This document shows positions 1 through 18,334 of a stretch of DNA of 18,334 bases, piece after piece (position 1 is the first letter of the stretch; each line of letters starts with the position of its first letter). Source of the stretch: Methanothrix sp. GTDB taxonomy: Archaea; Halobacteriota; Methanosarcinia; Methanotrichales; Methanotrichaceae. A model generated the notes under the pieces. It was not told the DNA's origin and searched no databases. It saw only the letters and a list, made by a program, of their open reading frames with translations. The stretch covers positions 1-18,334 of the forward strand of contig JAXGJB010000046.1 of NCBI GenBank assembly GCA_040770465.1, in the 5' to 3' direction. Position numbers and translations under genes: made by a program.

Positions 1-1
1 A

Positions 2-3000
2 TTCTATTTGCATTATACGGTCAATTAGATCGAGACATCTTGTTCTTAATGTCTTATCGTTAGTTTGTCGATATATCCGTAAGATTAACTGGCTGATGTG
101 GATATCTGATAATGCATGACGTTCTAATTCTCGATGAGAGCTGAGAGCATCAAGATACCTCTCGCATACTTGGCAAGTAATATCAGGAACTTTGGCGGTT
201 GTCTTTTCTAATGCAGTTATCAAACTTGACCGAGTGGTATCAAACGCGCTGCTTTCAACGAACGCTTCAATCAAACCTACATACTCACCCAGCTCATCAC
301 CTTCAAATCGATCGAAGCAATTTGACGCTTCAACACGCACTTTATCGTCCGGATCATTGAAGAGTTGAATCAATTTATCTTCGCATAATGGGCGGAATTG
401 TCGGAGATTTGAGGCAAAAACTTCGGCTGAACTGAGCCTCTGTGTATCTGTGCCAGACAAACAACGGTCGGCGAGTGGTTTTGCCTCCTCTACGTACAGA
501 GAGGCCAAACAAACCTGTCTCGCCGCAATTCTTGCAGCTTCGGGTACCTCAGAAGTGAGCATTCTTTCAAGAATGGGCTTAAGACAGGAAAAATGAGTTT
601 GTAATGCATATTTTATAAAGTATTCAACATGATTGGTACCTAACAGCACATCCTCCGTCTCACAGAGCTTTTTGAATAGGCGGACTGCCAAATCTCTATC
701 ATGGACCAACACAGCTGTAAGCGTTCTGACAACCCAAGACCTAACGGCAATTGAAGGGTCTCGTACCATTCGTTCCAGTGCTGGCAGGAAGTAAAGGATA
801 CGATCCTTATCGGGATGAATCAGCTCTCTCATAGCTTCTGCCGCTCCTCCTCGTACTGAATTGATCCCTGCCATTGAAATGTCGCCGCCATAATAAAAAT
901 CACCACCCTCAGCCTTGGTCCGCCATAATTCTTTCTCAGGATCGGGATCTTCAGTTGCATACCATGACACAATATCTAAGGCTTTATCAGGCAGGGGCTG
1001 TTCAGCCAAATTGGCAATAGGTTGACAAATCCAGCGACTGCAGCGGCGATCTGGAAATCGATGGCAACGTTGGCACACCTGAAGTACTGTTTGCACATCC
1101 AGATTGGCATCAGATATGCCTCGTAAAATCGCATTGAAGTAGTATTTGTGAGTGTCATCCGGAAATTGGAGCGCTAACTCAGCAAATCGTTTTGGCTCGT
1201 TTTTTGTTTGTTTTTCCAGAACTCCAGATAACTCATATGCACCACCGATAAAAAAGTCATGATCCTTACATCCAATTTTATCTCCATGTTTATAATTATA
1301 ATGTGAAACCGCCTCTAGCCACTCTTCGTCGTTCATTTTGTCTGCTTCTGATTCTGGTATTGGAGATCTGATAAAATCTACTTTAATATTTGGATCTTGC
1401 CTCCAATCTCCAAATTTTTGGGATAATTCCTCTAATCGCTGCCATACTTGTTCGGAACGGCGCGAAGGGTTGAATCCTTCGAGTAAAACAAATTGTGCAT
1501 GACCGTACTCATAACTACCTTCTTCGCTCTTCTCCCATTCTGAATAATAATTAAGTATCATATCCTCAAGCCTTGACAACTGGACGGCAGAGCAATACGG
1601 CGTGATGGATTCTAGCAGCTCTCGCGTTGCCCAGTGAGGACTGCTGAGATAACCGGTCTCAAGACGTGTGATTTTAGCACAAAGATAATCTGTTGCATCA
1701 GAGGCAAATCTCTCGCCGTTTGCTGTATAGGCTCGAATCAATAAATATTGGATCGTTTTAAAGTCTAGATCATTAAGTAGTTCTGCAACATATTCCAAAT
1801 ACTCTGGTTTGTTTACAGCAAGGTCTGATAGGGCATTTTCCATAGCAGTTAATATCGCGTCTTTGGAATCGGCGACCCAATCATAGTGGAGATATATCCA
1901 GATGGGATCGTTGTATGGCGAATGTTCCACTGATTTTGCTGTAAATCCTATTATATGAAGCATGAAAGGTAATATTTGATTGACGAATTCAATAGGCGCT
2001 CCTTTTGCGCTAGTGAGTAGGGCTCTCTTGAAAATATCTCCTGAAATATTACCAATATCACCATTTCTAACAAATGGGTTAAACCGCCCTTGATTTAGGG
2101 CTAAAATTAAACGCCGCTTAAGATAATGTCTGATTAATTCGCAAGCCCGGTCCGGACGATTTTCGGGCAAATTAATAATCCCACTCCTAAACCAAAAATC
2201 ATCTCTCATCGGGTTCTCCGTACCTACTTTATCGAGATGACCTTCATCAATTAGTTTTAATGTCAGTTCAAAGAAGCGACGGCCAGCAGATAAATCAGAA
2301 TACTGGATTATATGCGCTAATCTATGATCCCATTTTTTTGACTGGCCAACATAGGGTTCTATAAGCTCTGATATCCTGTCAGACAGCGTTCTTTGTACAC
2401 TTATTAATAGATCACTTGCTCTAGCAACAATTTTTTCGTCATGATCTGCCAACCATATTTCTATTAATCCGAGAGAATCTAGTAGCTTGAACCAAGGCAC
2501 AGAACCGTATAAAATACGCCGTACTTCTTTTGACCGAGGATCTTCTCGATCATCAATAAACTTAGCGATGACATTCCATTCTTCTTCCATCGGGTCGGTC
2601 AATTCCTTTAGCAGAGAGAAGACGACCTTTTTCAGGTGGAAGCGGATATCTGGGCGAGTAAGCAGAGCATCTAAATGTTCAATATAGCGGTCGAATTCCA
2701 TCTCGCGCTCGTGTAAAAGAATCTGCCTAACTTGGGCACGTCTGAATAGGCGCTGTTCGTCACTCAGTAATAATGATAATATGTCTTGCTTTCTCGCGGC
2801 GAATCGACGTGCAAATGCATAATCGAAAAATCCTTCATGGAAAAATGCATATTTTCCATCATCTAATATCAAAACATGCTCGGAAGCCATCGCTCTGGCA
2901 TCATCCGGAGATTCATCAACAACATATTCTGGAGCATATAATAATTGTTTTGTGCTCATATAATCACATAGCGCATCTATGACTTGAGTCCATTGAATGG

Positions 3001-4474
3001 ATCGGCCGAGGCGCTCACGAATTACAGTCTGCTTATATTCCCAATACCCGTGATATAGATCTCTCGCCGACTTGAAATTAAGGGCATCGGTAGTTTTATT
3101 TTCTGAAATTTCTGATAGTATGCGTAAGTGAAGAGGAATTGATAGTAATTTCAGTTGGTTGGCACTCAACTTTCCTGAGTCTAAACCTAAGTCATCGACC
3201 ACACCCTTCACAGTTTCATGAGTCAGAGGTTTAATCGGCACGACGTTAAGTGTCCCTTTTTTGCCTGTTAAACGTCGCAACCGATGATCATTATCGATAT
3301 CGAATTTTCGACAGGCTAATAATAACCGTATCTGCGGATGGGCTTCAGTTTGGTTTATAATTTCATGGATGCAATCGAAAAAGCTAGGATTACGGCCAGA
3401 AGCTAAACTTACAGCATCAAGTTGGTCGATGACCAATACACAATCTCGCCCTTGAGATATCGCTGCCAGAACGTTGGCAGGTGATCCAGGTAGACCCAAT
3501 TGAGATCCAACATCTTTGGGCAGTTGAGTGGGACTCAAACGATCAACACGAAATGTTAAAACAGGCCAGCTTTGGTCGTGAAGCGCTTCTACGACTTGGA
3601 GTATAACATTACTTTTGCCAACTCCCGCTTCGCCTGAAATCAACACACCGGTATTGTTGTCTGATGAAACGAGATTATCGAGAATTGATTTTACTTCATC
3701 TCTGGGGATAGTTTCTCCTGCAATAACTTCATCGCGAAGTGGAGATAAGTAACGATCATTTTGTGCTTTGATGGCCTCCAAAACACGAGGATCTTTACTC
3801 CACTGGCAAGGGCGATAACCACGCGTCTCTAGGTGATCCCATATGTTAAAAGCTATCAACTCATGATGAACTTCACGTAGTGCAAACTGAGCCAATACAT
3901 CTTTAACATCGGCGGGATCTCCATCAACGAGTGCGGTTAAACGGTTTTCAACGACGTCACCTAGTTCCCTTTCACCAAATGTTCCCACTCTAATCCGCTT
4001 GAGCGCCTCGTAAGCATCTTCTTCATCAGCAGCCTCGCTGCGATGATAAAAATCTTCGAAATCATCCAAGGGCTTTTTAGCTTTTAGAAATTCATCTTTA
4101 AATTCCTCGAAAGACGCAGCGCCTTCGGCTTTTTCAGCCAGGTCTCGCAATTGTTGTGCATCTTGGATAGAAACGAAGACACAGTAGTTATTTTCTGATT
4201 TTTGAATTTTTGTTAAGAATCGAGTTAAAATTTTTTCACGTTCCAGATCTGCCAGCGACCAATAACCTTTGCTACTATGTTGTCTTTTAACTTGGTGATA
4301 TTCGATTTTGTCACCCGTGCGAAGCCAGAACTCAGCACCTTCACCCTCCTCGCCAGGCGGTTCCAATCTTATAGAGTCGGCATGCTCTTCCAGGACCTCG
4401 GCCATACAATATACTGTCCAAAGGCCCTCATAACGGTTGCCAAATTTGTCAGTAGCTCCACCTGGTAGAGGCAT
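2..4474 (-). CDS. Large STAND-family NTPase with N-terminal Cap4-like PD-(D/E)xK nuclease and C-terminal helical (HEAT-like) repeats; Avs-like defence protein; 3' end outside window
   Basis: Hand translation from ATG 4474 (GAGGGAG upstream; alternative in-frame ATG at 4510): MPLPGGATDKFGNRYEGLWTVYCMAEVL...IRLEPPGEEGEGAEFWLRTGDKIEYHQVKRQ. Walker A GEAGVGKS at 3634-3611, Walker B LVIDQLD at about 3436-3416, sensor LLLACRKFD, winged-helix motif FFHEGFFDYAFARRF near 2850-2800. The same frame is open at the left edge (...RTRCLDLIDRIMQIE). The ORF track lists no stop-terminated ORF in this frame, consistent with one continuous frame of at least 1491 codons. Confidence 0.85.
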   Translation of the reverse strand, partial: MPLPGGATDKFGNRYEGLWTVYCMAEVLEEHADSIRLEPPGEEGEGAEFWLRTGDKIEYHQVKRQHSSKGYWSLADLEREKILTRFLTKIQKSENNYCVFVSIQDAQQLRDLAEKAEGAASFEEFKDEFLKAKKPLDDFEDFYHRSEAADEEDAYEALKRIRVGTFGERELGDVVENRLTALVDGDPADVKDVLAQFALREVHHELIAFNIWDHLETRGYRPCQWSKDPRVLEAIKAQNDRYLSPLRDEVIAGETIPRDEVKSILDNLVSSDNNTGVLISGEAGVGKSNVILQVVEALHDQSWPVLTFRVDRLSPTQLPKDVGSQLGLPGSPANVLAAISQGRDCVLVIDQLDAVSLASGRNPSFFDCIHEIINQTEAHPQIRLLLACRKFDIDNDHRLRRLTGKKGTLNVVPIKPLTHETVKGVVDDLGLDSGKLSANQLKLLSIPLHLRILSEISENKTTDALNFKSARDLYHGYWEYKQTVIRERLGRSIQWTQVIDALCDYMSTKQLLYAPEYVVDESPDDARAMASEHVLILDDGKYAFFHEGFFDYAFARRFAARKQDILSLLLSDEQRLFRRAQVRQILLHEREMEFDRYIEHLDALLTRPDIRFHLKKVVFSLLKELTDPMEEEWNVIAKFIDDREDPRSKEVRRILYGSVPWFKLLDSLGLIEIWLADHDEKIVARASDLLISVQRTLSDRISELIEPYVGQSKKWDHRLAHIIQYSDLSAGRRFFELTLKLIDEGHLDKVGTENPMRDDFWFRSGIINLPENRPDRACELIRHYLKRRLILALNQGRFNPFVRNGDIGNISGDIFKRALLTSAKGAPIEFVNQILPFMLHIIGFTAKSVEHSPYNDPIWIYLHYDWVADSKDAILTAMENALSDLAVNKPEYLEYVAELLNDLDFKTIQYLLIRAYTANGERFASDATDYLCAKITRLETGYLSSPHWATRELLESITPYCSAVQLSRLEDMILNYYSEWEKSEEGSYEYGHAQFVLLEGFNPSRRSEQVWQRLEELSQKFGDWRQDPNIKVDFIRSPIPESEADKMNDEEWLEAVSHYNYKHGDKIGCKDHDFFIGGAYELSGVLEKQTKNEPKRFAELALQFPDDTHKYYFNAILRGISDANLDVQTVLQVCQRCHRFPDRRCSRWICQPIANLAEQPLPDKALDIVSWYATEDPDPEKELWRTKAEGGDFYYGGDISMAGINSVRGGAAEAMRELIHPDKDRILYFLPALERMVRDPSIAVRSWVVRTLTAVLVHDRDLAVRLFKKLCETEDVLLGTNHVEYFIKYALQTHFSCLKPILERMLTSEVPEAARIAARQVCLASLYVEEAKPLADRCLSGTDTQRLSSAEVFASNLRQFRPLCEDKLIQLFNDPDDKVRVEASNCFDRFEGDELGEYVGLIEAFVESSAFDTTRSSLITALEKTTAKVPDITCQVCERYLDALSSHRELERHALSDIHISQLILRIYRQTNDKTLRTRCLDLIDRIMQIE

Positions 4475-4728
4475 ATCTTCTCCCTCTTTAAAGACAATCT
4501 GAGATAACATTTTCTCGTATAAGAATGATCCCAAGATTTGTTTCTGGTGGGGATTTTTATATCACCGTACTTTCAACCCGAATCCCTTCCTTTAAAAATC
4601 ATTCGACTTTCCTCTACAGGTACACAAAACAAGTGGACAGCAATCAGGGCAATTTCACCCCCCCCTCTTGCGCCGCTTCCCTTCAGACGCCGTACATTTG
4701 AGGGCCGACAGCATCCCGCTGCCGCCCC

Positions 4729-5682
4729 TCACCCCATCTTCTCCCTCACCGGCTCCAGAATCGCGTTCAGATGCTCGACGGCGCTCTTCTTGAGGTCGAG
4801 GGGGTGCATCTTCCCGGCCAGATAGTCCGCCTCAAGGCCATCGTACCTCTCGTAGGTGACGTCTCCGCCGAACTTCTCGGGCCGCCTTATGGTGACGCTA
4901 CCCAGGCGGGGCAGGATGTGGTACTTGAAGAGCTCGGTGACGGGGTTTCCTTCGATGTCTTTTGCCGGGCAGTAGGCGGACATGATCTTCGTTCCGAGGT
5001 CCTCGGCGGAGTCGTCGACGGAGATGTAGTTCCCCTTCGAGGAGGACATCTTCCCGCCGTTGAGGCCGGAGATGATGGGGGTGTGCAGGCACACCGGCGG
5101 CTCTAGGCCGAGCCTGGGCATCTCTTCTCTTGCCAGCATGTGGATCTTCCTCTGGTCGATCCCGCCGACGGCCAGGTCGACTTTGAGGGCGGCGATGTCC
5201 ACCGCCTGCATCAGGGGGTAGATCATCTGGGATACGTGGGGGTTGTCCATGTTCCGCCCCACCTCGTCCATCGACCGACGGGCCCGGTTGAGGGTGGTGT
5301 TCCTCGCCATCTTCAGGACGTTCTTGACGTACTCAGGCTCGAGCTGGTAGTCGGTCCCGTAGACGAACTCCGTCCGTTCGGGGTCGAGGCCGAGGGCTAT
5401 GAAGCAGTCCCTGTTGTAGTCGGCCGTCGCCCTCACCTCTTCGAGGGTCCCCTTCTCGTTCAGGTAGGCGTGAAGGTCCGCCAGAAGGACGACGACCTGG
5501 AATCCCGCCTCCTGAAGGTCGATCAGCTTGTTTGCGGTGAGCATGTGGCCCATGTGGACCTTCCCGCTCGGCTCGTATCCCACGTAGGCCCTCGGCTGCT
5601 CCTTTCCCTCCATCAACGCCTTGAGCTCGTCCAGCGTGACGATCTCCTCTGCATTCCTGATCACAAGCTCAAGCCTGTCCAA
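4729..5682 (-). CDS. tyrS: Tyrosine--tRNA ligase (archaeal type)
   Basis: AYVGYEPSGKVHMGH (HIGH), YPLMQAVD, GGIDQRKIHMLARE, KMSSS; TTG start with GGTGGTGAT RBS-like sequence upstream. Confidence 0.97.
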   Translation of the reverse strand: MDRLELVIRNAEEIVTLDELKALMEGKEQPRAYVGYEPSGKVHMGHMLTANKLIDLQEAGFQVVVLLADLHAYLNEKGTLEEVRATADYNRDCFIALGLDPERTEFVYGTDYQLEPEYVKNVLKMARNTTLNRARRSMDEVGRNMDNPHVSQMIYPLMQAVDIAALKVDLAVGGIDQRKIHMLAREEMPRLGLEPPVCLHTPIISGLNGGKMSSSKGNYISVDDSAEDLGTKIMSAYCPAKDIEGNPVTELFKYHILPRLGSVTIRRPEKFGGDVTYERYDGLEADYLAGKMHPLDLKKSAVEHLNAILEPVREKMG

Positions 5683-5715
5683 CTGATATCACCACCACCC
5701 CAGAGGAGAGGGGAT

Positions 5716-5730
5716 GTATAACGCTTTTGG
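5716..5730 (-). promoter_or_regulatory. Putative BRE/TATA promoter of tyrS
   Basis: CCAAAAGCGTTATAC on the minus strand; the TATA-like box begins 39 nt upstream of the TTG start. Confidence 0.55.
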
Positions 5731-5737
5731 TTCCTTT

Positions 5738-5785
5738 GGGAAATGCTCTGGCGAATGCCTTGTGGAATGCTTTAGGGAATAGCAC
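5738..5785. repeat. Four degenerate 12-bp tandem repeats (core GAATGC-like)
   Basis: gggaaatgctct ggcgaatgcctt gtggaatgcttt agggaatagcac; AAT cores at 5742, 5754, 5766 and 5778 (exact 12-bp period). Confidence 0.6.
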
Positions 5786-5901
5786 TTCTGCCATATGCGA
5801 CGGGCGAGGCTGGGCGATGGAAGGTGAGGCTAAGGGATATGAGACGGGGGAGTGATCTATTCAAGATAAGGGTTATTAGGGACCTACGCTCTTGGGCAAT
5901 C

Positions 5902-6126
5902 GTGAAGCAGAATCAGAAGCAGAAGGGAAAGCGCGACCCTGAGCCGGAGGAGAGGCCGTCTGCCCAGAATGACGCCGACGGGTCCCGTGAGAAGACCGCC
6001 GGCCTCGTATTCTTGGCGATCCTCTTCTCCCTGGTCTTCTGGAATTCGTACTGGTTTCTCTCCAAGTTCCTGCTCCTGTTCGTCATCTTCTACGTGATCT
6101 ATCTCGGCGCGAAATCCCGGCTCTGA
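5902..6126 (+). CDS. Small membrane protein, paralog 1 of 3 (74 aa)
   Basis: GTG at 5902 is in frame with track ORF 5824-6126 and lies 29 nt after TTATTA (5873). Hydrophobic stretch GLVFLAILFSLVFWNSYWFLSKFLLLFVIFYVIYLGAKSRL. Confidence 0.7.
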   Translation: MKQNQKQKGKRDPEPEERPSAQNDADGSREKTAGLVFLAILFSLVFWNSYWFLSKFLLLFVIFYVIYLGAKSRL

Positions 6127-6181
6127 TTTTGGGCGACGCCGACAGAAAGGGTTATCAGAAGATACCGCCCACCCTTATGGC

Positions 6182-6364
6182 ATGGGTCGCAGAATGTTTG
6201 GCAGATCAGGGAGGATCCGGAGACGCGAAGAGAACATCATACTCCTGATCCTGGCCATCGTGATAGTCGCTCTCCTCTGGAACTTCATTGGGGTTATCTT
6301 CAGAGTATTCCTATTCGCCGTCGTCGTCTACCTCGTCTACCGTCTCCTTCAGAGCCGCTTCTGA
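6182..6364 (+). CDS. Small membrane protein, paralog 2 of 3 (60 aa)
   Basis: Basic N-terminus, then NIILLILAIVIVALLWNFIGVIFRVFLFAVVVYLVYRLLQSRF; TTATCA box 30 nt upstream (6152). Confidence 0.75.
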   Translation: MGRRMFGRSGRIRRREENIILLILAIVIVALLWNFIGVIFRVFLFAVVVYLVYRLLQSRF

Positions 6365-6426
6365 GATGAGGTTTGCTGGGAGAAAATGGAGAAAACGTTA
6401 TCATATCAAAGGACGGAGTCTGTTGT

Positions 6427-6609
6427 ATGACTCGCGCAATTCCGGTCCGGGCCGGGGGGAGCCGATCCCTCTTGACGAACCTGATCCTCCTGGCAGTCGC
6501 GCTGGTGGTGGCCGTGATCCTCCTTCACATCATCGGCTTTCTCGCGGGGATATTGATCTTCGCCCTGGTGGTCTACATCGTCTACCTCGTCCTTCGCCAC
6601 CGCTTCTGA
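6427..6609 (+). CDS. Small membrane protein, paralog 3 of 3 (60 aa)
   Basis: ATG at 6427, in frame with track ORF 6373-6609 and 29 nt after TTATCA (6398): MTRAIPVRAGGSRSLLTNLILLAVALVVAVILLHIIGFLAGILIFALVVYIVYLVLRHRF. Confidence 0.75.
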   Translation: MTRAIPVRAGGSRSLLTNLILLAVALVVAVILLHIIGFLAGILIFALVVYIVYLVLRHRF

Positions 6610-7222
6610 GGCGGGCCTCGATCCGCCCGGCCTCGGCGAGGTCCTCCTCGGTGTTCAGGTTGAAGAGGCTCAATAGCTCCGGATCGAGAGGACGAAGAAG
6701 CTCCACCGATACGAACTTGGCGGAGAGCCCCTCCAGAGGGGCCCTGATCCTCAGCATTCCTCTGGCCAAGGCGTCCTCGCAGGCCCGGGCCATGGTGTCA
6801 GTCCTGTAGACGGCGTGAAGGGGCTCCATGAGGTCGCCCTCCTGAACGGGGATGGCGGCGTCGTACCCCTCAGCGAGATCGAATAAAAGCTCCAACACGT
6901 CGGGGTTGAGAAAAGGGAGGTCGCAGGCCACCGCGAGGGCGCGCTCTCCCCTGGCAGCAGCCATCCCGGCGGCGAGCCCCGCCACCGGTCCGAACCCCTG
7001 AACCGGGTCGACGGTGAGCCTCGCATCGGGGACGAGAGGCTCGAGCCTCAAAAGCTGTTTTTCGTCCCTCGCCACCACCACGAGGTCGTCGACGACCCCG
7101 CCGACGATCTCGACGGTCCGCTCGATCATCGTCGAGCCGCAAAATTCTAGAAACGCCTTCTCAGAGCCGATCCTCCTCCCGGCGCCTCCGGCGAGGATCA
7201 CACAAGACCTGTGAGCTCCCAT
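6530..7222 (-). CDS. mobA: Molybdenum cofactor guanylyltransferase
   Basis: From ATG 7222: CVILAGGAGRRIGSEKA, GFGPVAGL, LAVACDLPFL, MEPLHAVY, LFNLNTEEDL. The upstream extension in the track ORF overlaps the preceding gene and looks spurious. Confidence 0.9.
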   Translation of the reverse strand: MGAHRSCVILAGGAGRRIGSEKAFLEFCGSTMIERTVEIVGGVVDDLVVVARDEKQLLRLEPLVPDARLTVDPVQGFGPVAGLAAGMAAARGERALAVACDLPFLNPDVLELLFDLAEGYDAAIPVQEGDLMEPLHAVYRTDTMARACEDALARGMLRIRAPLEGLSAKFVSVELLRPLDPELLSLFNLNTEEDLAEAGRIEARLRSGGEGRGRRCRPPGRRSISPRESR

Positions 7223-7800
7223 CCTCCCTCCTCGCAGTCCTCTCGCAGGGCTCGCAGGAGGACCGCCTCGGGGTTCGGATTCACCTCGTCGGAGGTGAGA
7301 AGGGTGTAATCGGGGCTGACCGAGGCGGTCGCTTCCATCGCCTCCTCGAATAGGGACCTCATCGACGATAGCTCCGGAGGCTTTCCGGAGGCTCCGAGCC
7401 GCTGGTATGCGAACTCCCTGGTGAACCGATTTCCGAGGATGATCAGGGTCGACTTGCCCCTCTTCGAGACCTCCGCCTTTTTCCCGGCGATCTCGACGAG
7501 GAGATAGCCTCCTGGGACGAGGTATATCCTCCTCCGCCTCTGGCTCTCGACGGAGAGCTCCGTCACCTCCCCTACAAGAACGCCACCATCTCCCCACTTC
7601 CAGACCTTCTCCCTGCCGTCCGATATCCGAATATTCGAGCCCAGCTCCTCGGCCCTCCTCCGGAGCTCTTCATCGGTCCTGATCCTGCCGCTGTAAAGCT
7701 CCTCCTCCAGGGCCTCGGCTCTGCCGAAGAAGGCGATGCTCCTTTTGTCTCCTCCTAAGATCGCCCTCTTTTTGCCGGCAAAAGCCACCACCAGCGACAA
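7198..7800 (-). CDS. Connectase / MJ0548 (DUF2121) family protein, Ntn-hydrolase fold related to proteasome beta subunits
   Basis: N-terminus (M)SLVVAFAGKKRAILGGDKRSIAF, with Ser as first residue after Met removal and a GDxR motif, then LEEELYSGRIRTDEELRRRAEELG; 200 aa; GGGAGTGAT RBS-like sequence upstream of the TTG. Confidence 0.85.
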   Translation of the reverse strand: MSLVVAFAGKKRAILGGDKRSIAFFGRAEALEEELYSGRIRTDEELRRRAEELGSNIRISDGREKVWKWGDGGVLVGEVTELSVESQRRRRIYLVPGGYLLVEIAGKKAEVSKRGKSTLIILGNRFTREFAYQRLGASGKPPELSSMRSLFEEAMEATASVSPDYTLLTSDEVNPNPEAVLLRALREDCEEGGWELTGLV

Positions 7801-7826
7801 GTCGTGATCACTCCCTCAATCGGTTT

Positions 7827-8681
7827 TTATCGATTTGATCTCGTCTTCATCTGCATCTCGGCCGCCTTCACCGTCTGGCTCATCAGAATCGAGACGGTGA
7901 GGGGCCCAACCCCTCCGGGGACGGGGGTCACGGCGGCAGCCACCAACAGGGCTTCATCGAACTCGACGTCGCCGACGGTCTTGCCTTCGACCCTGTTTAT
8001 GCCGACGTCGAAGACGTAGGCTCCAGGCTTCACCATATCCGCCTTGATGAGGCCGGGAACCCCCGCCGCCACCACCAGGACCTCGGCTTTCCGCGTGTGG
8101 GCCGCAAGATCCTTCGTGAAGACGTGGCAGACGGTGACGGTGGCGTTTCTGTTGAGCATCATCGCCGCAAGGGGCTTTCCGACGACGTTGCTGTGGCCGA
8201 CGATCACCGCCTCCTTTCCCTTCAGGTCGACGCCGAGCCTTTCCAGGGCCCAGATTATCCCTTTCGGCGTGCATGGAACGAGCCTCTCGGCCCCGGCGAG
8301 AAGAGAGCCCATGTTCATCGGGTGGAAGCCGTCCACGTCCTTTGCTGGGTCGATGGCGGCCATCGCCGGGCTTGGGTCGAGCCCGCCGGGGAGGGGGAGC
8401 TGGAGTAGGATTCCGTTTACGTCGTCCCGCTCGTTGAGCCCCCGGATAGTCTCGACGATCTCATCGATCCCCGTCCCCTCCGGGAGGTTGACGTTCTCAG
8501 ACCTTATCCCGACCCGGTCGCAGGCCGAGTGCTTGATCCGGACGTACATCGCAGAGGCGGGGTTCTCGCCGACGATGATCGTTGCAAGCCCCGGCCTTCT
8601 GCCCAGGGCCGCTAGCTCATCGACCCTCACTTTTGTCTCGGCCTCCATCTCCGAGGCGAGGGCCTTTCCGTCGATGATCAT
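7827..8681 (-). CDS. folD: Bifunctional methylene-THF dehydrogenase/cyclohydrolase
   Basis: [52 protein letters not shown]; the ATG at 8681 overlaps the glyA TGA (ATGA). Confidence 0.96.
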
Positions 8682-9922
8682 CCCAGTTCCGGATAGAGGG
8701 GGAACCTCAGACAAAGCTCAGCCACCTCGTCTTTCACCCTTGCAATGACGTTCTCATCGTCTATGTTCCTGAGGACGGAAGCTGTCATGTTCGCGATCTG
8801 GACCATCTCCTTCTCTTTCATCCCCCGGGTGGTGACGGCCGGGGTCCCTATCCTGATGCCGCTCGTTATGAACGGCGAGGTCGGATCGAAGGGTATGGTG
8901 TTCTTGTTGAGGGTGATCCCCGCCCGCTCCAGGGCCGCCTCGGCGTCTTTTCCGGAGTAGGCCATCTTCAGGAGCTTGACGAGCATCAGGTGGTTGTCGG
9001 TCCCGCCGCTGACAAGCTCGAAGTTCTGGTCGAGGAGGGTCCTGGCGATGACGGCGGCGTTCTTCACGATCTGCTGCTGGTAGGTCTTGAACTCGGGGGC
9101 CAATGCCTCCTTGAAGGCGACGGCCTTGGCGGCGATGACGTGCATCAGCGGGCCGCCCTGGACGCCGGGGAAGACCGCCCTGTCGATGGCGGGGGCGATC
9201 TCCTGCCTGCACATGACGACGCCGCCCCTCGGACCCCGGAGGGTCTTGTGGGTGGTGGTGGTGACGACGTCGGCGTGGGGTATCGGCGAGGGGTGGACGC
9301 CGGCGGCCACAAGCCCCGCTATGTGGGCGATGTCGGCCATCAGGTAGGCTCCCACCTCGTCGGCCACCTCCCGGAGGGCTTTGAAGTCGATGGTCCGCGG
9401 GTATGCGGAGGCGCCGGTGACGATCATCTTGGGGGAGCACTTCTTTGCGATCTCCAGCATCTCGCCGTAGTCCAGCATCTCGGTCTCGCGGTTGACGCCG
9501 TAGTGGACGACGTTGTAGACCTTGCCCGAGAAGTTGACGGGGCTACCGTGAGAGAGGTGGCCACCGTGGTCGAGGGCCATGCCCATGACGGTGTCGCCGG
9601 GCTTGAGGAGGGCGAGGTAGACGGCCATGTTCGCCTGGGAGCCGCTGTGGGGCTGGACGTTGACGTGATCCGCCCCGAAGAGCTCCTTACACCGGTCTCT
9701 CGCCAGGTTCTCGGCGACGTCGACGAAGGTGCAGCCGCCGTAGTACCGTTTGCCAGGGTAGCCCTCGGCGTACTTGTTGGTCATCACGTTGTTGTAGGCC
9801 TCCATCACCGCGAGGCTTGTGAAGTTCTCGGCGGCGATCAGCTCGAGGCCGCTTCTCTGTCGCCTCAGCTCGTCTTTTATGGCCGAGGCGATCTCGGGAT
9901 CAACATCATCCAGGAAGTTCAA
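8678..9922 (-). CDS. glyA: Serine hydroxymethyltransferase (bacterial/THF-type)
   Basis: [47 protein letters not shown] (PLP lysine), SGIRIGTPA. Confidence 0.98.
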
Positions 9923-10040
9923 TTAAATCACCGGTAAACGATCTTCTGGAGAGATTCGCTGGGGGGCAAAATAGGTTATGGTGGTGGATGCCGGGCGGCG
10001 GCGGGAGGCGGTGGCGAGCGGAGAGGGGGCGGAGGAAGAC

Positions 10041-10075
10041 GACGGCGAACGGCAGACGGCGGACGGCGGATGGCG
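10041..10075. repeat. Five 7-bp tandem repeats (GACGGCG consensus) inside nested inverted repeats
   Basis: gacggcg aacggca gacggcg gacggcg gatggcg; flanked by gagggggcg (10023-10031) / cgccccctc (10084-10092). Confidence 0.65.
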
Positions 10076-10132
10076 ACGGAGCGCGCCCCCTCCCCCACAC
10101 ACCACCACCCATCACGACAGCCTTTTTAGCCC

Positions 10133-10609
10133 ATGAGGAGAGACGATTGGATGATGCTCAAACGGGCGAGGATTATAGCCGACTTACAGTTCGGGCGCGG
10201 GAGCGGCCGGGCTCTTTTCGCAGATGATACGAAGTTCCAGCTCTCAAAGACTGGGAGGCTGAGACATCTGTACCGGGGCGAGGAGAGGATAGCGACGGTC
10301 CGGGCCCGCGACGGCCTTCTGACTTTGAGCAGCCTCGGCGCCAAGCTTCTCTATGATCATCTGCCGGCGCCAAGGCAAAGGGTCGTCATCCTGAGCGAGG
10401 TGGCGCCTTACGTCGCCAAAGGAGGGACGGCCTTTGCAAAGCACGTCGTCGCCGTCGATCCCGAGATCAGGGCGGGAGAGGAGGTTCTGGTCGTCGACGA
10501 GGAGGACCATCTCATCGCCACCGGGAGGGCGGTCCTTGCGCCGGAGGAGATGATGGAGATTAGCCGGGGCCCCGCGGTGATCGTGAGGTCCGGCCAGGAG
10601 GAGGAGTGA
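10133..10609 (+). CDS. PUA-domain protein resembling the C-terminal part of archaeal tRNA-guanine transglycosylase
   Basis: RARIIADLQFGRGSG, FQLSKTGRLR, FAKHVVAVDPEIRAGEEVLVVDEEDHLIATGRAVL. The start may be ATG 10151, 28 nt after TTTTTA (10123). Confidence 0.85.
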   Translation: MRRDDWMMLKRARIIADLQFGRGSGRALFADDTKFQLSKTGRLRHLYRGEERIATVRARDGLLTLSSLGAKLLYDHLPAPRQRVVILSEVAPYVAKGGTAFAKHVVAVDPEIRAGEEVLVVDEEDHLIATGRAVLAPEEMMEISRGPAVIVRSGQEEE

Positions 10610-10610
10610 G

Positions 10611-10672
10611 CGGCCTTTTCCCCCCCCCGCCGGGCCCCGGACCCGGGCCGGTGATCATTGATTTTTTTTTGC
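10611..10672 (+). terminator. Possible terminator region between the convergent PUA and iscS genes
   Basis: GC-rich, partly self-complementary stretch followed by a run of about nine T ending at 10670. Confidence 0.4.
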
Positions 10673-10699
10673 TCCTGAGCTGGGCCATCAAGCGGGCCA

Positions 10700-11860
10700 T
10701 CAAGCTTTTCTGAATGGCGACATCGCCAGGAGGCTCTCGGCCACGGAGACGATCGTCTCTGCGACATAGTCGACCTCCTCGTCGGTGTTCTCCCTTCCCA
10801 GGGTTATACGAAGCGAGCCGTGGGCCTCCTCGGGTTTGAGGCCGATGGCGGTGAGGACGTGGCTAGCCACCGTCTTCTTCGAGGAGCAGGCGGAGCCCGT
10901 CGAGACGGCGATCCCCTCGGCGTCGAGCCGGAGCAGCAGAGCCTCCCCCTCGATGAAGGAGAAGCCGAGGTTGAGGTTGTGGGGGAGCCTCTTTGTCCGA
11001 GAGCCGTTGACCCAGGTGTCTTCGACCCGCTCCAGGACGTAGTCTGCGAGCCGGTCTCTCATCCCGCTCATCCGGACCATGTCATCCTCCAGGTTCTCCC
11101 CCGCCAGCTCCGCGGCGGTCGCCAGGCCGACGATGCCGGGGACGTTCTCTGTCCCCGACCTCATCCCCCGCTCGTGTCCGCCGCCGAAGACGATCGGCTC
11201 GATCGGCGTTCCTTTGCGGATGTAGAGGGCGCCGACCCCTTTCGGGCCGTGGAGCTTGTGGGACGAGATCGAGAGCAAATCCACACCGAGGTCGTCGACC
11301 TTCGTCGGGATCTTGCCGACGGTCTGGACGGCGTCGGTGTGAAAGACGATCCCTCGATCGCGAGCGAGCTCCCCCGCCTCGGCGATGGGCTGGATCGTAC
11401 CGATCTCGTTGTTTGCGTGCATGATCGAGATGAGGATCGTGTCCTCCCGGATCGCCGACTCCAGGGCGTCGATCTCGACGAGACCCTCCCTGGTCACCGG
11501 CAGATAGGTCACCTCGAAGCCCTCCTCCTCCAGCCTCCTGCAGGGCTCGAGGATCGCGGGGTGCTCGATGGAGGTGGTGATGATGTGGCGGCCCCGCTTC
11601 CTATTCGCCAGGGCGGCGCCCCTTATGGCCAGGTTGTCCGACTCGGTCCCGCCGCTGGTGAAGTAGACCTCCTCCGCCTCCGCCCCGATGAGGGCCGCCA
11701 CCCGCTCGCGGGCCTCCTCCAGGGCGGCCCGGGCCGCAAGGCCAGGCTGGTGGAGGCTTGAGGCGTTGCCGAAGATCTCGACGAAGGCGGTCTTCATCGC
11801 CTCGATCACCTCCGGGGCCATGGGGGTGGTGGCGGCGTGGTCCATGTAGATCCTCTTCAT
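10700..11860 (-). CDS. iscS: Cysteine desulfurase (IscS/NifS group I)
   Basis: MKRIYMDHAATTP, FTSGGTESDN, HTDAVQ, SSHKLHGPKG (PLP lysine), RSGTENV, STGSACSS (catalytic Cys). TATTTA box 31 nt upstream of ATG 11860. Confidence 0.95.
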   Translation of the reverse strand: MKRIYMDHAATTPMAPEVIEAMKTAFVEIFGNASSLHQPGLAARAALEEARERVAALIGAEAEEVYFTSGGTESDNLAIRGAALANRKRGRHIITTSIEHPAILEPCRRLEEEGFEVTYLPVTREGLVEIDALESAIREDTILISIMHANNEIGTIQPIAEAGELARDRGIVFHTDAVQTVGKIPTKVDDLGVDLLSISSHKLHGPKGVGALYIRKGTPIEPIVFGGGHERGMRSGTENVPGIVGLATAAELAGENLEDDMVRMSGMRDRLADYVLERVEDTWVNGSRTKRLPHNLNLGFSFIEGEALLLRLDAEGIAVSTGSACSSKKTVASHVLTAIGLKPEEAHGSLRITLGRENTDEEVDYVAETIVSVAESLLAMSPFRKA

Positions 11861-12128
11861 GGGAAAATCCGAGGAGCCCATAGGGTAAATAGGCGGCGAG
11901 GGTCCGGGTCGGGCGGCGAGGGCCGTCGGCGCCGGCCGCCACCAGCCGCACACCGACCGACGACCGCAGGCCCGACCGCCGGGCGGCGCGAACGCCCGCG
12001 GGCGAAGAAGAGGCGGCGGACCTGACCCTGAACAGAAGCAAACGCCGCCTCCGGCAACCCGACCCACCGAGGGCGACCGGAGGGCAATAGAGAGAACTTA
12101 TAAGTAAACGGCCGCAAGACTCCGGCCC

Positions 12129-12380
12129 ATGATAGCCTTCCACCCGCTGATCATGGCGGGAATCGTCCTCATCAGTGTGGGGATCCTCTACACCCTCGTC
12201 TCGCCCCGGGCCGGGATCGTCATGGCGGGGCTGGGGACGGTGGCGGCGGGGGTCTTCCTCTTCACCATCGTCCCGAATGCTTTGAACCCCATAGCCTTCT
12301 TCTTCAACGGCCTTCTCGTCCTCTGCGGCCTCTGGATGGTGGACGTAGGCGTGAGAAGGGACTGCTGCGCCGGGCGATAA
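12129..12380 (+). CDS. Small membrane protein (83 aa, about three TM helices)
   Basis: Almost entirely hydrophobic ORF with core-like GC-rich codon usage; TTATAA box at 12098, 31 nt upstream of the ATG. Confidence 0.7.
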   Translation: MIAFHPLIMAGIVLISVGILYTLVSPRAGIVMAGLGTVAAGVFLFTIVPNALNPIAFFFNGLLVLCGLWMVDVGVRRDCCAGR

Positions 12381-12382
12381 GC

Positions 12383-12390
12383 TTTATATG
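12383..12390 (+). promoter_or_regulatory. TATA box of the tRNA-Pro gene
   Basis: TTTATATG beginning 35 nt upstream of the mature tRNA 5' end. Confidence 0.65.
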
Positions 12391-12417
12391 GGTGGTAAGC
12401 GTCCTCGAATCCGCAGC

Positions 12418-12493
12418 GGGGCCATAGGGTAGCCTGGTATCCCACAGGACTGGGGGTCCTGTAACCGGCGTTCAAATCGCCGTGGCCCCACCA
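12418..12493 (+). tRNA. tRNA-Pro (anticodon GGG), CCA encoded, no intron
   Basis: Acceptor stem GGGGCCA/TGGCCCC followed by ACCA; D arm GGGT-AGCCTGGTA-TCCC; anticodon arm CAGGA-CTGGGGG-TCCTG; T arm CGGCG-TTCAAAT-CGCCG. Confidence 0.95.
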
Positions 12494-12817
12494 TTTTCGC
12501 GATGCTTAAGAGGGTTTTTGCGGTATCAAGATCGAAGAAGTGTGAGCAGTATCATGTGTTTCCAAATTTCATAACTAAATATGAAGTTAAAATTTGTGGG
12601 AAAATTTTGCAGATCTATCAAAGCCACAATGATTAGATCGTAGATAGGTGTCTCACATTCTTCAAGGAAGTCGGTTGGATGAATAAAGACCGACGAACAG
12701 ATGCGAAATGAGATCGGAGCACGTTGGACCTCGCCAGCGATGATCAATGCATCTGCCACGCCACTTAAAAGCGGGGTGGTGTTAATGCGGCTTTTTTTTC
12801 TTAATCGATGGCCGAAG

Positions 12818-14161
12818 TTATGAGCAATACCCACTGAGTCCAGTTAGAATGCTATATTTAGCTGCAGAAGTATATGTAGCCGTGGGTGTATATTTAGCAG
12901 AAGTATATGTAGCTGTGGGGGTGGGAGTTCCAGTAACAACCGGAGTAAAAGTAGAAGTAGATAAATTTGTAGGCCGTTTTGGATATATTATTAATAAACT
13001 AAGGTACTTATCACATTTTGGTTGATAATCATTTAAATATTCAAATTTTATTAAACTGGTTCCGTTCCTCAAATCCTGTAATTTTAAAAGAAACTCTATA
13101 TTTTGATTTGCTGCATAATTATTGGGGTTTAATCGTATAGCATGTTCGAAGAGTCTTGATGCCTCATCATATTGTCCCTTCAATAAATAAATAACTCCTT
13201 TGTTGTTCCATGCATTTTCAAAACATGGATTTATTTCTATTGATTTGTTGAATGCATCGAGTGATTGATCGTATTCACCGATCATAGATAATAATATACC
13301 TTTGCTATTCCACGCCATCGAGTGCAGGTTATTTTTCGCTATAGCATTGTTAAACGAGCTAAGCGCTTCACCAGATTCATTTAAATTTGCATTTACTATT
13401 CCCCTGAGATACCATGTTTCCGCATAATCTGGATCTATTGCTTCGGCTTTTTCAAAAGCTTGAAGAGAATCACGAAATCTATATAACTCAAAGAGTGCCA
13501 TACCTTTGTTGAGCCACGCATCAACATAACGTGGGTTTAGATTAATAGCGTTTTCAAAAGCTGTAATAGATTCTTCATATTTACCTTCGCTAACTAAGTC
13601 GAGACCCCTTTCGTTCCACATAACCGAAAAACCATTTAATTGGTTAGGAATAGTTATTATTATAATTAATAATATAAAAAATAGCCCGAAAATTGTTGCA
13701 AGATAACCGAATTTTAGAAAATCGCATTTATCTTTGAGTGTATTTACTAAATCATTCGTATGTATCTCACTTCTGCTTTTTAGAAACGCTTTTTCTGGTT
13801 CTTTTTTTATGATTTTTAGACAAGAAATGATACTAATGAACCAGAAGATAACTGGAATTATAGGTACATATGCAAAATATTTTGGATATGATATATATAC
13901 AAGAACATCTCGCATCATTCCAAGTGATTGGGTATTCATCAGGATGGCTAGATAACCGCCTATTAAGAGAGCATTAATAGACGTTAGTTGTTTTGCAGCG
14001 TCTTCTTGTATTCTAATATCTTCAAAAATATTTTTATGTAATGCAACTGTTTTATCGCCTTCGTCATCCGTAGTTATGCGATCTGTTGAAACCCATGGGT
14101 CGTCATGACAAGTCCCTTTCATAGCTATCATGCTGAGATATATGGCACTATTACCTGTCAA
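12818..14161 (-). CDS. Membrane protein: N-terminal three-TM domain + five TPR repeats + Thr/Pro-rich tail
   Basis: Three hydrophobic segments in roughly the first 175 aa. TPRs such as AWLNKGMALFELYRFRDSLQAFEKAEAIDPDY and AWNSKGILLSMIGEYDQSLDAFNKSIEINPCF. AT-rich. Start could be TTG 14161, ATG 14131 or ATG 14122. Confidence 0.85.
   Translation of the reverse strand: MTGNSAIYLSMIAMKGTCHDDPWVSTDRITTDDEGDKTVALHKNIFEDIRIQEDAAKQLTSINALLIGGYLAILMNTQSLGMMRDVLVYISYPKYFAYVPIIPVIFWFISIISCLKIIKKEPEKAFLKSRSEIHTNDLVNTLKDKCDFLKFGYLATIFGLFFILLIIIITIPNQLNGFSVMWNERGLDLVSEGKYEESITAFENAINLNPRYVDAWLNKGMALFELYRFRDSLQAFEKAEAIDPDYAETWYLRGIVNANLNESGEALSSFNNAIAKNNLHSMAWNSKGILLSMIGEYDQSLDAFNKSIEINPCFENAWNNKGVIYLLKGQYDEASRLFEHAIRLNPNNYAANQNIEFLLKLQDLRNGTSLIKFEYLNDYQPKCDKYLSLLIIYPKRPTNLSTSTFTPVVTGTPTPTATYTSAKYTPTATYTSAAKYSILTGLSGYCS
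12854..12921. repeat. Short tandem duplication encoding TPTATYTSA(A)KY twice
   Basis: gcagaagtatatgtagc occurs twice, 33 bp apart, near the 3' end of the TPR gene. Confidence 0.75.
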
Positions 14162-14439
14162 TTAAACTTTTCGATATAAATAACATATATCATACATATT
14201 ATTATATAAATATATTAAATCATTTCCGGGAGATATAACAAACAAATGAACGTCCAACTTAATGGACAGGCTGCCTCAGTTATCAAGGATGCGCTGGATG
14301 TTCCTGGAGATGTGGACCAACATAGATTTGCTGAAGGTTAGGTTGGATGTTGATTGCATCAGTTTTTAGAAGCAATTAACCCATATGTAACAAGAGAAGA
14401 GTGCAGGAAGTTTAAAATATAATAAATATGTTATATGTA

Positions 14440-15111
14440 TTAAAATTTCCGATATAGATACGTTTTTCCGGATAAGTCATCGTTTAGCCATTGTTCCGTT
14501 TCTAAATCGAAAATATCCTTTAGGCGATTGTACAGAGCATTGATGGTATCAAAAATTTTGTATTCTTCTATTTCTGCGGGATCTAAATCCATAATCGTCT
14601 TCGGCAGTATTTCTTTTCCCTCATCTGCTGGTGCTGCATATCTGCCAGACCATACCAAATGTTCGTTAGCATCTTTTAAGAGTGAATGTTCGATATCAGT
14701 TAATTCGATCCCTAAAGCCTTAATTAAATCCGGCGCTGTATGACCTCTAATCCCAAGACTTTTAAGGCTTGCATTCTCACTTATCTGAGGATTCGCTTTC
14801 AATTTCCTGGCTACTGTTATTCCCTTAACCATATTTTCGATCGCCATACCCATTAGCATCATATAGACAGGTACTACAGAATAAGCACTCGGTTGATGAG
14901 GCGGAAGAGTTCCTAATTCAACCAATTGTTCCCAATCAAGTTCATAATCCTTCTCCCTGTAAAGTCTCGATTTTTGCATGTATTCCCATTCTATGTCAAA
15001 ATATCTATTATATAGTTCATATAAACCATCCGCGTTTTGATATAACATATCTGCGGTGAAGAACCAGCTCCAGGGATTACTTATAACCTCTCTATAATTG
15101 TTTATGTCCAT
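14440..15111 (-). CDS. HEPN-like domain protein (223 aa)
   Basis: Pattern W..TA..L...A, then YMMLMGMAIENMVKG, GHTAPDL and WSGRYAAP, matching the E..xK / H..L / RY layout of HEPN helical bundles. AGGAGA RBS upstream; AT-rich. Confidence 0.6.
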   Translation of the reverse strand: MDINNYREVISNPWSWFFTADMLYQNADGLYELYNRYFDIEWEYMQKSRLYREKDYELDWEQLVELGTLPPHQPSAYSVVPVYMMLMGMAIENMVKGITVARKLKANPQISENASLKSLGIRGHTAPDLIKALGIELTDIEHSLLKDANEHLVWSGRYAAPADEGKEILPKTIMDLDPAEIEEYKIFDTINALYNRLKDIFDLETEQWLNDDLSGKTYLYRKF

Positions 15112-15333
15112 TACTTATCTCCTATCAAGATCATCTCTCAAATTCAGTATTTCATCTTTGCGTTCGTCTCCAGATTCCCGCGGCATAGTCGCCAACAGGC
15201 TTCTCTCTACTCTGAGACTCGCCGCTTATTCATTACTAGCCCCCCAGCCCCTCCTCTGGCTACGAAGGTACATCGCTGCCTTCTCGCGCCTCCGGATAAA
15301 GGGGCAAGCCTTCCTCAGCGAGTATCAAGCCCC

Positions 15334-15656
15334 TCATCTCCCTCCTCCCCTCGGCACCAGGCACTTCGGCCCGTCGCCGATCAGATCCTCCCGCCCGGCG
15401 ATGCGCAGCCCCTCCCGGACGAGCCCCCAGTTTCTCTTGTCACGGTACTGGAGGAGAGCCCGCTGAATCTCCTTCTCCCGTCCCTTCGGGACGTGGACCG
15501 GCTTTCCGGAGAAGGGGTCGAGCCCCGAGTGGTACATGCAGGTCGAGACGGTCATGGGGGTGGGGGTGAAGTCCTGGACCTGCTCGGAATAAAGGCGATG
15601 GTCCCGGATGTACTCGGCGAGCTCCACCATGTCACTGATCTCGCAGCCGGGATGGC
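15334..15656 (-). pseudogene. Detached second copy of the 3' end (about 106 codons) of the YgiQ-family radical SAM gene
   Basis: 15352-15656 aligns without gaps to 16389-16693 (offset 1037) with 12 mismatches by manual count; has its own stop (...LVPRGGGR*). Confidence 0.9.
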
Positions 15657-16219
15657 TAGTTGTTGGGTGCATTCTCGATCGGTATTGGAGGCTTGCGCCT
15701 TAATTTATAAACCCCCCAAATGGATTCGAGTAGTTTCACGACAATACCCCCAATGGCACTTGTCACAACATCATTTGCATTGAGGCCTAGTCCGGCTTCG
15801 CCATCGTCGTCGGGATCGGGGCTCGTTCCGGCTTCGCCATCGTCGTCGGGATCGGGGCTCGTTCCGGCTTTGTCATCGTCGTCGGGATCGGGGCTCGTTC
15901 CGGCTTCGCCATCGTCGTCGGGATCGGGGCTCGTTCCGGCTTCGCCATCGTCGTCGGGATCGGGACTTGGTTCAGAATCATCCTCGTCTTTGGATTTAGA
16001 TAATGATGATCCCAACTGAGCTTCGCTAGGTGATGATGACCCCAAATGGATAACCTCTTTGGGTTTTGATGACCCTAAATGGGAAACTTCTTTGGTTGAT
16101 GACCCCAAATGGATAACTTCTTTGGGGTTTGATGACCCCGAATCTGCATTTCCTGCCGCAACACTATGTAAGGCCATCGCAAAAATAATTACGATTACGA
16201 TTGCGATAGCTTTTCGCAT
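15656..16219 (-). CDS. Secreted or surface-anchored low-complexity acidic repeat protein (187 aa)
   Basis: Signal peptide MRKAIAIVIVIIFAMALHSVAAG; GGAGGGAG RBS; three GSSxxKEVxHL repeats; five SPDPDDDGEAG-type repeats; C-terminal hydrophobic segment followed by KLRRK. Confidence 0.8.
   Translation of the reverse strand: MRKAIAIVIVIIFAMALHSVAAGNADSGSSNPKEVIHLGSSTKEVSHLGSSKPKEVIHLGSSSPSEAQLGSSLSKSKDEDDSEPSPDPDDDGEAGTSPDPDDDGEAGTSPDPDDDDKAGTSPDPDDDGEAGTSPDPDDDGEAGLGLNANDVVTSAIGGIVVKLLESIWGVYKLRRKPPIPIENAPNN
15791..15964. repeat. 36-bp tandem repeat, four full units plus one partial
   Basis: tccggcttcgccatcgtcgtcgggatcggggctcgt at 15791, 15827, 15863 (two substitutions), 15899 and 15935 (partial); no spacers. 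Confidence 0.95.
16035..16139. repeat. 30-33-bp degenerate tandem repeat, about three units
   Basis: gatgaccccaaatggataac...ctttgg repeated in frame, encoding GSS(x)xKEVxHL. Confidence 0.85.
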
Positions 16220-16376
16220 AATCTCCCTCCTTTAAAGCCTTCTTTTCTCAACTCCAATCGGCAAAGTTACTAGTACTATAATTGTTAGAACTTAAAGAAA
16301 AATCTGTCGGCACAAATGAGGCAAAAATCATGAGAGCTGGAATGTATCTGATCCGAATCCCGGATCAACCCCACCC

Positions 16377-18275: not shown

Positions 18276-18334
18276 ACCGGCCTTTCTCCTTCTGCTCTTC
18301 TTCATCAAAAGCCCCTTCATCACTGCCTATTTCT

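Follow-up and report, generated by a model that had tools for sequence, protein, structure and literature searches.

We analysed an 18,334-bp stretch of DNA from the methanogenic archaeon Methanothrix sp. (NCBI GenBank assembly GCA_040770465.1, contig JAXGJB010000046.1, positions 1 to 18,334; henceforth the window), which is the entire contig 46 of a 2.54-Mb genome assembled in 66 contigs and approximately 95% complete. One end of the window is occupied by a large minus-strand gene that lies downstream of tyrS (tyrosyl-tRNA synthetase). Its product is predicted to combine an N-terminal nuclease, a central STAND nucleoside triphosphatase (NTPase) and a C-terminal helical sensor, and we consider, with a probability of about 0.72, that it is an Avs7-type receptor, a single protein that performs antiviral pattern recognition, and that its gene sits on a small low-GC insert gained by horizontal transfer.

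The gene and its position behind tyrS

The gene occupies a minus-strand frame of 1511 codons (4534..2) which is free of stops and open at the contig start; residues are numbered here according to this 1511-codon translation, and subtracting 20 gives the numbering of the real protein. In the alignment, the conserved start corresponds to the ATG at 4474-4472 (MPLPGG...), at which 17 out of 21 aligned homologues begin (three of the other four have short N-terminal extensions and one has a later start), with a Shine-Dalgarno-like GAGGGAG ahead of it at 4486-4480. Counting from this start, 1491 of about 1508 codons lie in the window, and as the homologues extend 17 residues past its last codon, the window lacks just the very end of the C-terminus and the stop codon. 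When we searched all 66 contigs by tblastn with the C-terminal 60 residues of five homologues and with the full-length protein P0002, the matches were to contig 46 alone. An earlier reading of the same DNA, made from its letters and a list of open reading frames (ORFs) and referred to here as the sequence-only reading, had placed the gene at 2..4510, remarked on its absence from the ORF track, suggested extending the contig to the stop and named an internal stop or frameshift as grounds for abandoning the idea. The frame itself holds, with no stop in its 1491 codons, while the ATG at 4510 is just an alternative in-frame start; the frame is listed only among open-ended ORFs, which explains its absence from the track, and the search with homologue tails found no missing piece. 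The features of the locus are as follows:

2..4474, minus strand: probable Avs7-type antiviral STAND gene, an open frame whose ends were set by the alignment of 21 homologues and by tblastn of homologue tails
3800..4474, minus strand: predicted N-terminal Cap4-type PD-(D/E)xK nuclease domain (effector), real residues 1 to ~225
4286..4429, minus strand: putative nuclease active-site residues (E36 at 4427-4429, E58, E68 at 4331-4333, Q81-V82-K83 at 4286-4294)
3755..4294, minus strand: mosaic segment of the nuclease domain, translation residues 81-260, by windowed identity and synonymous divergence (dS)
2555..3799, minus strand: predicted STAND NTPase module (nucleotide-binding domain, helical domain and winged helix)
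3611-3634, 3416-3436, 3308-3310 and 2837-2839, minus strand: Walker A, Walker B, Arg409 and His566, respectively, within the STAND module
2..2554, minus strand: predicted C-terminal helical (HEAT-like) sensor of ~850 residues, from the AlphaFold2 (AF2) model, Pfam HEAT matches and the family profile
4475..4678: upstream edge of the low-GC insert and likely promoter region of the minus-strand gene, from reading the sequence and from the drop in identity to metagenome contig L084
4729..5682, minus strand: tyrS (PF00579, E 6.6e-55), the conserved anchor gene upstream, given as context and lying outside the system

The sequence-only reading had also noted AT-rich DNA directly behind tyrS, and this is borne out: GC content is 0.40-0.44 over positions 1-4500, compared with 0.59-0.69 in the adjoining genes and 0.574 in the genome, and tyrS lies upstream on the same strand. 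The same order, tyrS and then the Avs gene, is found in two metagenome contigs, L083 and L084. Within the tyrS-Avs spacer there is an A/T-rich box, ATATAAAAAT, at 4553-4562, which on sequence grounds could be an archaeal TATA element and hence a candidate promoter. The spacer spans 254 bp (4475-4728), and its unaligned part measures 139 bp here versus 67 bp in L084.

Predicted folds and conserved motifs

We scored motif conservation over 22 aligned proteins, i.e., this one and 21 full-length homologues. The motifs comprise G32-R34-Y35-E36, E58, E68-F69 and H80-Q81-V82-K83 in the N-terminal part, Walker A (GEAGVGKS, G301-S308), Walker B (LVIDQLD, L367-D373) and C408-R409 (within 'ACR') in the central part, and a winged-helix motif (FFHEGFFDY..AR, with F564-F565-H566, D571-Y572 and A575-R576). 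All of these residues were invariant in 22/22 proteins—including K307 of Walker A, D370 and D373 of Walker B, R409 and H566—save G32, R34, Y35 and E36, which were conserved in at least 90%. The motif set named in the sequence-only reading is therefore present in full.

Sequence profile libraries recognised the central part. The Pfam family nSTAND_NTPase5 (PF25199) scored 32.6 bits with the whole protein and 33.8 bits with the excised module (gathering cut-off 34), and was matched by 21 of the 22 family members at E ≤ 0.01; further Pfam matches were to AAA_16 and HEAT repeats (HEAT E 1e-7). The best PADLOC model for every one of the 22 members was PDC-M54A (best E 1.8e-25), with an alignment confined to the NTPase and winged-helix part (profile positions 316-643 of 1621-1657). 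PDC-M54 has the status of a candidate defence system only, and a literature search for the name found no paper. Neither PADLOC nor NCBIfam gave a full-length match to any of the Avs1-Avs5 models: PADLOC Avs2 models matched weakly over ~120-155 NTPase residues only (E 7e-6 to 2.7e-4), and the NCBIfam scan returned nothing above noise, the Avs4 model scoring 12.5 bits against a cut-off of 1500.

We then considered structure, using two AF2 models built from 44-row alignments. The model of residues 21-660 had a mean predicted local distance difference test (pLDDT) score of 87.6 and a predicted template modelling score (pTM) of 0.82; that of residues 640-1511 had a pLDDT of 84.5 and a pTM of 0.53 and was all-alpha. 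In a Foldseek search with the first model, Avs4 and Avs3 (EcAvs4, PDB 8DGF, and SeAvs3, PDB 8DGC) led the list with E 1.1e-11, and an exhaustive structural comparison separated this model into two parts. Together, the models show predicted folds of a Cap4-type PD-(D/E)xK nuclease, an NLR-like STAND NTPase and a HEAT-like solenoid of ~850 residues. All three belong to a single polypeptide, giving the tripartite arrangement of N-terminal effector, central STAND NTPase and C-terminal sensor of at least 400 residues, so that both the layout and the helical C-terminal repeats proposed from the sequence alone now have modelled folds and fold matches behind them. This architecture is fixed in what is a large family: a word-indexed homology search gave 1135 proteins at E ≤ 0.001 among 7998 candidates scored, and nearly all of the 120 matches listed were 1470-1630 residues long.

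The canonical PD-(D/E)xK nuclease has an alpha-beta-beta-beta layout, and the residues of the predicted N-terminal domain fit it, with Glu at the usual Asp position. Specifically, in the secondary structure that DSSP assigns to the model, helix 1 carries E36, strand 1 has E58 at its end, strand 2 has E68 at its start, and strand 3 contains Q81-x-K83. Across the 44-row alignment E16, E38, E48, Q61 and K63 (in model numbering) were invariant. The Glu at the expected catalytic Asp (GEGAEF, E68), to which the sequence-only reading had drawn attention, is thus real and family-wide, and its invariance in 44/44 aligned proteins indicates the normal state of the family and not a defect. We assume from this conservation that the putative E...Q-x-K site is catalytically competent.

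Relation to Avs7

We used a profile of the family to search PDB sequences. The profile matched 9n00_A (SeAvs7, 1523 aa) with E 2.7e-39 over two collinear stretches, one aligning 60-663 to SeAvs7 59-659 (independent E-value, i-Evalue, 3.5e-22) and the other, within the sensor, aligning 949-1362 to 943-1370 (i-Evalue 2.5e-13, bias 0.0). SeAvs7 was the sole PDB sequence match at E ≤ 0.01, the next ones having E ≥ 0.041. Avs3, Avs4 and Avs5 have solved chains in the fold library, yet none of them was among the 15 PDB sequence matches at E ≤ 1. A search with the single sequence gave E 4e-19 against SeAvs7, with the NTPase stretch 293-684 aligned to 277-659 (i-Evalue 9.9e-13).

SeAvs7, from Salmonella enterica, has been described by Lee et al. 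(Nature 2026, PMC13581612; bioRxiv 10.64898/2026.01.04.697583), with structures deposited as PDB 9N00 (apo SeAvs7), 9N01 and 9YIX. Avs7 is a Cap4 nuclease-STAND-TPR receptor whose sensor, in SeAvs7, envelops the HK97-fold major capsid protein of phages; after capsid binding, SeAvs7 exchanges ADP for ATP (with ATP/Mg) and forms an asymmetric tetramer in which the Cap4 domains degrade double-stranded DNA (PMC13581612). The family is reported to have undergone many effector swaps and extensive horizontal transfer, and one of its clades (192 of 1,757 homologues) incorporates EF-Tu (PMC13581612).

The methanogen protein resembles SeAvs7 in its parts (a Cap4 nuclease, a STAND NTPase with winged helix and a large helical sensor), in its length (~1508 versus 1523 aa), in collinear homology that runs through nuclease, NTPase, winged helix and sensor, and in being a single-gene system with evidence of horizontal transfer. 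Walker A is conserved, and D358, R395 and H545 of SeAvs7, which contact the nucleotide (PMC13581612), align with D370, R409 and H566; Q81-x-K83 (real 61-63) aligns with Q60-x-K62, meaning that the Q-x-K of the E...Q-x-K nuclease motif is common to both proteins. By contrast, the host here is an archaeon, the sequence is distant and the EF-Tu contacts are unconserved. Considering that the only significant PDB sequence match is collinear and has a described mechanism, the protein is best read as a divergent Avs7-type receptor. The sequence-only reading had said that a close match to a characterised Avs subtype would remove the novelty and leave the function; the homologue we found is distant, albeit full-length, which lowers the novelty and keeps the functional reading.

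On this reading, and by homology with SeAvs7, the resting protein would be an ADP-bound, autoinhibited monomer. Its C-terminal helical sensor would wrap a structural protein conserved among viruses (for a tailed archaeal virus, most probably the HK97-fold major capsid protein); this would free the NTPase for ADP-to-ATP exchange and oligomerisation, which in turn would unite the N-terminal Cap4-type nuclease domains into an active DNase, predicted to degrade double-stranded DNA and thereby abort infection. The sequence-only reading had called for antiviral recognition and left the viral trigger unnamed; the first part we retain as a probable role in host defence, and for the second the HK97-fold major capsid protein is now, by homology, the probable candidate.

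Several observations weigh against an Avs7-type receptor of this kind. The first concern the nuclease, which has Glu in place of the canonical Asp and Gln in place of the second acidic residue; while the Cap4 nuclease fold is present in the predicted structure, Pfam Cap4_nuclease (PF14130) was found in just 1 of the 22 members (E 5.8e-6), and the N-terminal domain on its own gave nothing relevant in Pfam, including no PF14130 match at E ≤ 10. The second concern the sensor, which in 9N00 is bilobed and sharply bent. In Foldseek the methanogen sensor model fitted generic HEAT solenoids only (karyopherins and CAND1, with template modelling scores of 0.2-0.3; fold library up to 2026-04-08, which does not hold 9N00), and in the single-sequence search its stretch 1034-1344 aligned to SeAvs7 1002-1325 with an i-Evalue of just 6.2e-4 (20 bits), so that its target could have drifted; the similarity to SeAvs7 is distant overall. 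PADLOC gave no match to Dsr1, though Dsr1 is said to share the Avs7 sensor (PMC13581612). Third, in a by-eye reading of the printed alignments the EF-Tu contacts of SeAvs7 are not conserved in the family: two of the five interface residues (H1048 and D1059 out of Q999, D1003, K1044, H1048 and D1059) are identical here, both at positions which vary across the 22 members, while D1003 and K1044 align with Glu and Q999 falls beyond the alignment. This agrees with a cofactor limited to 192 of 1,757 homologues (PMC13581612). Finally, six family accessions had no match in six source-data files of Lee et al. (which are not accession lists), the assignment is made by sequence homology and not by an entry among the 3,272 Avs7 proteins curated by those authors (PMC13581612), and no HK97 capsid gene (PF05065) was found in the methanogen's own genome at 95% completeness.

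Some of these points can be explained by a separate Avs family, sister of Avs7, that has the same Cap4-STAND chassis and uses its HEAT-like sensor for a portal, terminase or tail protein, or for a perturbation of the host. The weak single-sequence sensor match, the lack of a PADLOC match to Dsr1 and the assignment without confirmation in the authors' Avs7 list are in line with this, as is the existence of at least 90 structurally distinct Avs families, many of them with TPR-like helical sensors (PMC13581612). We nevertheless consider it unlikely, since the profile match in the sensor is significant and collinear, the two proteins are nearly equal in length and Q-x-K stands at 61-63 versus 60-62; furthermore, the Avs7 sensor is reported to sense capsids even when it is part of Dsr1, which is otherwise unrelated (PMC13581612). 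By sequence, the C-terminal sensor appears homologous to that of Avs7, and the sensor is the feature by which Lee et al. delimit Avs7 (PMC13581612).

Among other known systems, Avs3 and Avs4 are the top Foldseek matches to the nuclease-plus-NTPase model and differ in having other lengths, no significant PDB sequence match and, for Avs4, the low NCBIfam score given above. Both were described by Gao et al. in 2022, their sensors reportedly detecting terminase and portal. The nuclease domains of Cap4 (CBASS), LmuA (Lamassu) and HamA (Hachiman) have sequence identities of 10-14% and are fused to or partnered with other sensors (SAVED, the SMC-like LmuB and the helicase HamB, respectively), and the eukaryotic NLRs NLRP3, NLRP9 and NOD2 (12-13% identity) have PYD or CARD effectors and an LRR sensor. 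A Cap4-type head is shared with Avs3 (PMC13581612).

Horizontal acquisition and allele turnover

That the host is an archaeon is shown by its genome, which has mcrA, as expected from the methanogen proposed earlier, and by the contig, which carries genes typical of archaea and methanogens (e.g., connectase MJ0548 and archaeosine TGT C2/PUA). We found no match to the gene in 40 close relatives, including 15 genomes of the same genus, and matches in 4 out of 400 other genomes sampled from the phylum. These four copies are 28-53% identical to the methanogen copy, which is no nearer to them than the bacterial members are. The damaged ones are located as follows:

G099:C1:73533-78051 (L088/L092): split archaeal copy, matching the profile at 1-1352 and 1346-1503
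G382:C65:14371-15792 (L090): archaeal copy with an internal TAG, ending at the contig edge

Taken together, these distances, one split copy and one with a stop suggest that the gene was acquired several times independently and has often decayed. Most members of this large family are bacterial: with one genome per species we confirmed 456 relatives, and the best 80 of these came from bacteria without exception (Cyanobacteria, Chloroflexota, Acidobacteriota, Planctomycetota, Armatimonadota and others). A cluster at 83% identity is the nearest one and includes a protein annotated from a Methanothrix sp. metagenome-assembled genome. With its low GC content and patchy distribution, the gene looks foreign, which indicates horizontal acquisition. 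To look for partners, we fetched 80 loci, 38 of which had both flanks, and compared their 997 flanking ORFs by all-against-all BLASTP. No cluster occurred in more than 4 of the 38 loci, and those 4 came from closely related Dehalococcoidia; as no neighbour is conserved across the 38 loci, the gene is a single-gene system.

In metagenome contigs L083 and L084 the same slot is filled by an 83% identical allele, with tyrS, the Avs gene and two small ORFs following one another in that order. L084 and the window are 97.6% identical over a 4.7-kb flank of core genes, and from ~50 bp past the tyrS stop (window position ~4678) onward identity falls to 86.0%. L083 and L084 differ at 5 of 4536 bases in the Avs gene, and both alleles are complete (1512 aa). 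Between these two contigs, a 6.4-kb block running from tyrS through the Avs gene to the small ORFs (L083 4367-10794, L084 3635-10062) is 98.9% identical, while the upstream flanks are just 88% identical, suggesting a recent recombination tract over a housekeeping and a defence gene. The small ORFs overlap each other, encode 68 and 75 aa and follow the Avs gene in L083 (10370-11067) and L084 (9624-10033), together with a third ORF of 88 aa. By their sequence features, the 68-aa and 75-aa ORFs are presumably a HicA/HicB toxin-antitoxin pair. A ~400-bp copy of this hicAB-like pair, 80% identical, lies in the methanogen's own genome at C11:59694-60097 and is the sole further match of L083 and L084 there; we rejected a join of contig 46 to contig 11 through it, the copy being 2.9 kb from the contig end and probably a paralogue.

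Within the gene, divergence is unevenly distributed. When identity is taken over windows of 60 residues, it amounts for residues 81-200 to 48-52% with P0002, the 83% identical allele, and to 80-88% with another relative, P0005, while from residue 261 onward identity to P0002 is 70-100%; likewise, dS is ~1.5 in real residues 1-240 versus 0.15-0.47 elsewhere. By these comparisons, nuclease residues 81-260 come from another allele lineage than the rest of the gene, making it a mosaic in the helical part of the domain. The pattern points to allele turnover at a fixed locus, with the gene exchanged between lineages. The ratio of non-synonymous to synonymous substitution rates (dN/dS) relative to the sister allele is 0.24 overall and 0.04-0.33 in every segment, indicating purifying selection and hence a gene that is probably functional.

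These results bear on two further explanations. One is that the gene is an inactive relic, i.e., an acquired defence gene which no longer works because its nuclease site has degenerated, with Glu instead of Asp, or because its 3' end is damaged. Such decay has evidently befallen the split and interrupted copies in the phylum, the 3' end here lies outside the assembly and the canonical Asp is replaced; yet the 1491 codons are stop-free, E68 is invariant in all 44 aligned proteins, dN/dS is low in every segment and the sister alleles are complete, making a relic very improbable. The other explanation, a non-immune STAND regulator or a housekeeping NTPase that merely resembles Avs proteins, strikes us as hardly credible considering the Cap4-type nuclease head, the patchy distribution and horizontal transfer, the turnover of alleles at a fixed locus, the hicAB-like pair that adjoins in L083 and L084, and the matches to a PADLOC defence-candidate model. 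What speaks for it is that family annotation of the window genes revealed no known defence gene beside the Avs gene, and that defence and non-defence STAND clades are interspersed (PMC13581612).

Returning to the Avs7-type receptor, we tentatively propose, at somewhat less than even odds, that in the methanogen it senses the HK97 capsid of tailed archaeal viruses without EF-Tu, and that the slot behind tyrS is an allele exchange site at which the hypervariable helical part of the Cap4 domain (~81-260) is swapped, perhaps because viruses carry inhibitors that act on the nuclease or on tetramerisation. If this is true, the same capsid-fold recognition module works across the bacterial-archaeal divide after horizontal transfer. 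Avs receptors correspond, in prokaryotes, to the NLRs of animals and plants, and Avs7 was characterised only in 2026, in an enterobacterium. The well-preserved methanogen copy is a candidate for studying immunity to tailed viruses of archaea that is based on protein patterns, since the capsids of these viruses have the HK97 fold as well, and it offers a natural experiment on whether sensing of the capsid persists after transfer from one domain of life to another and in the absence of the EF-Tu cofactor; the locus also shows, cleanly and on a small scale, how alleles of an immune gene are replaced and a domain becomes mosaic in one fixed chromosomal slot. The additions to what is known of Avs7 are modest (a methanogen host, the family-wide E...Q-x-K motif and allele mosaicism): a known family is extended to a new host group, and current views stand.

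Elsewhere on the contig, a second low-GC island at 12500-15100 (GC 0.33-0.36 versus ~0.6) holds a 447-aa TPR-repeat protein (12818-14161, minus strand) and a 223-aa ORF with no Pfam match (14440-15111, minus strand). A short ORF at 15334-15672 matches positions 1-84 of DUF3362, and the C-terminus of the neighbouring YgiQ-type radical SAM protein (16377-18323) matches positions 1-85 of the same family; judging by these matches, the short ORF looks like the remnant of a second copy beside the island.

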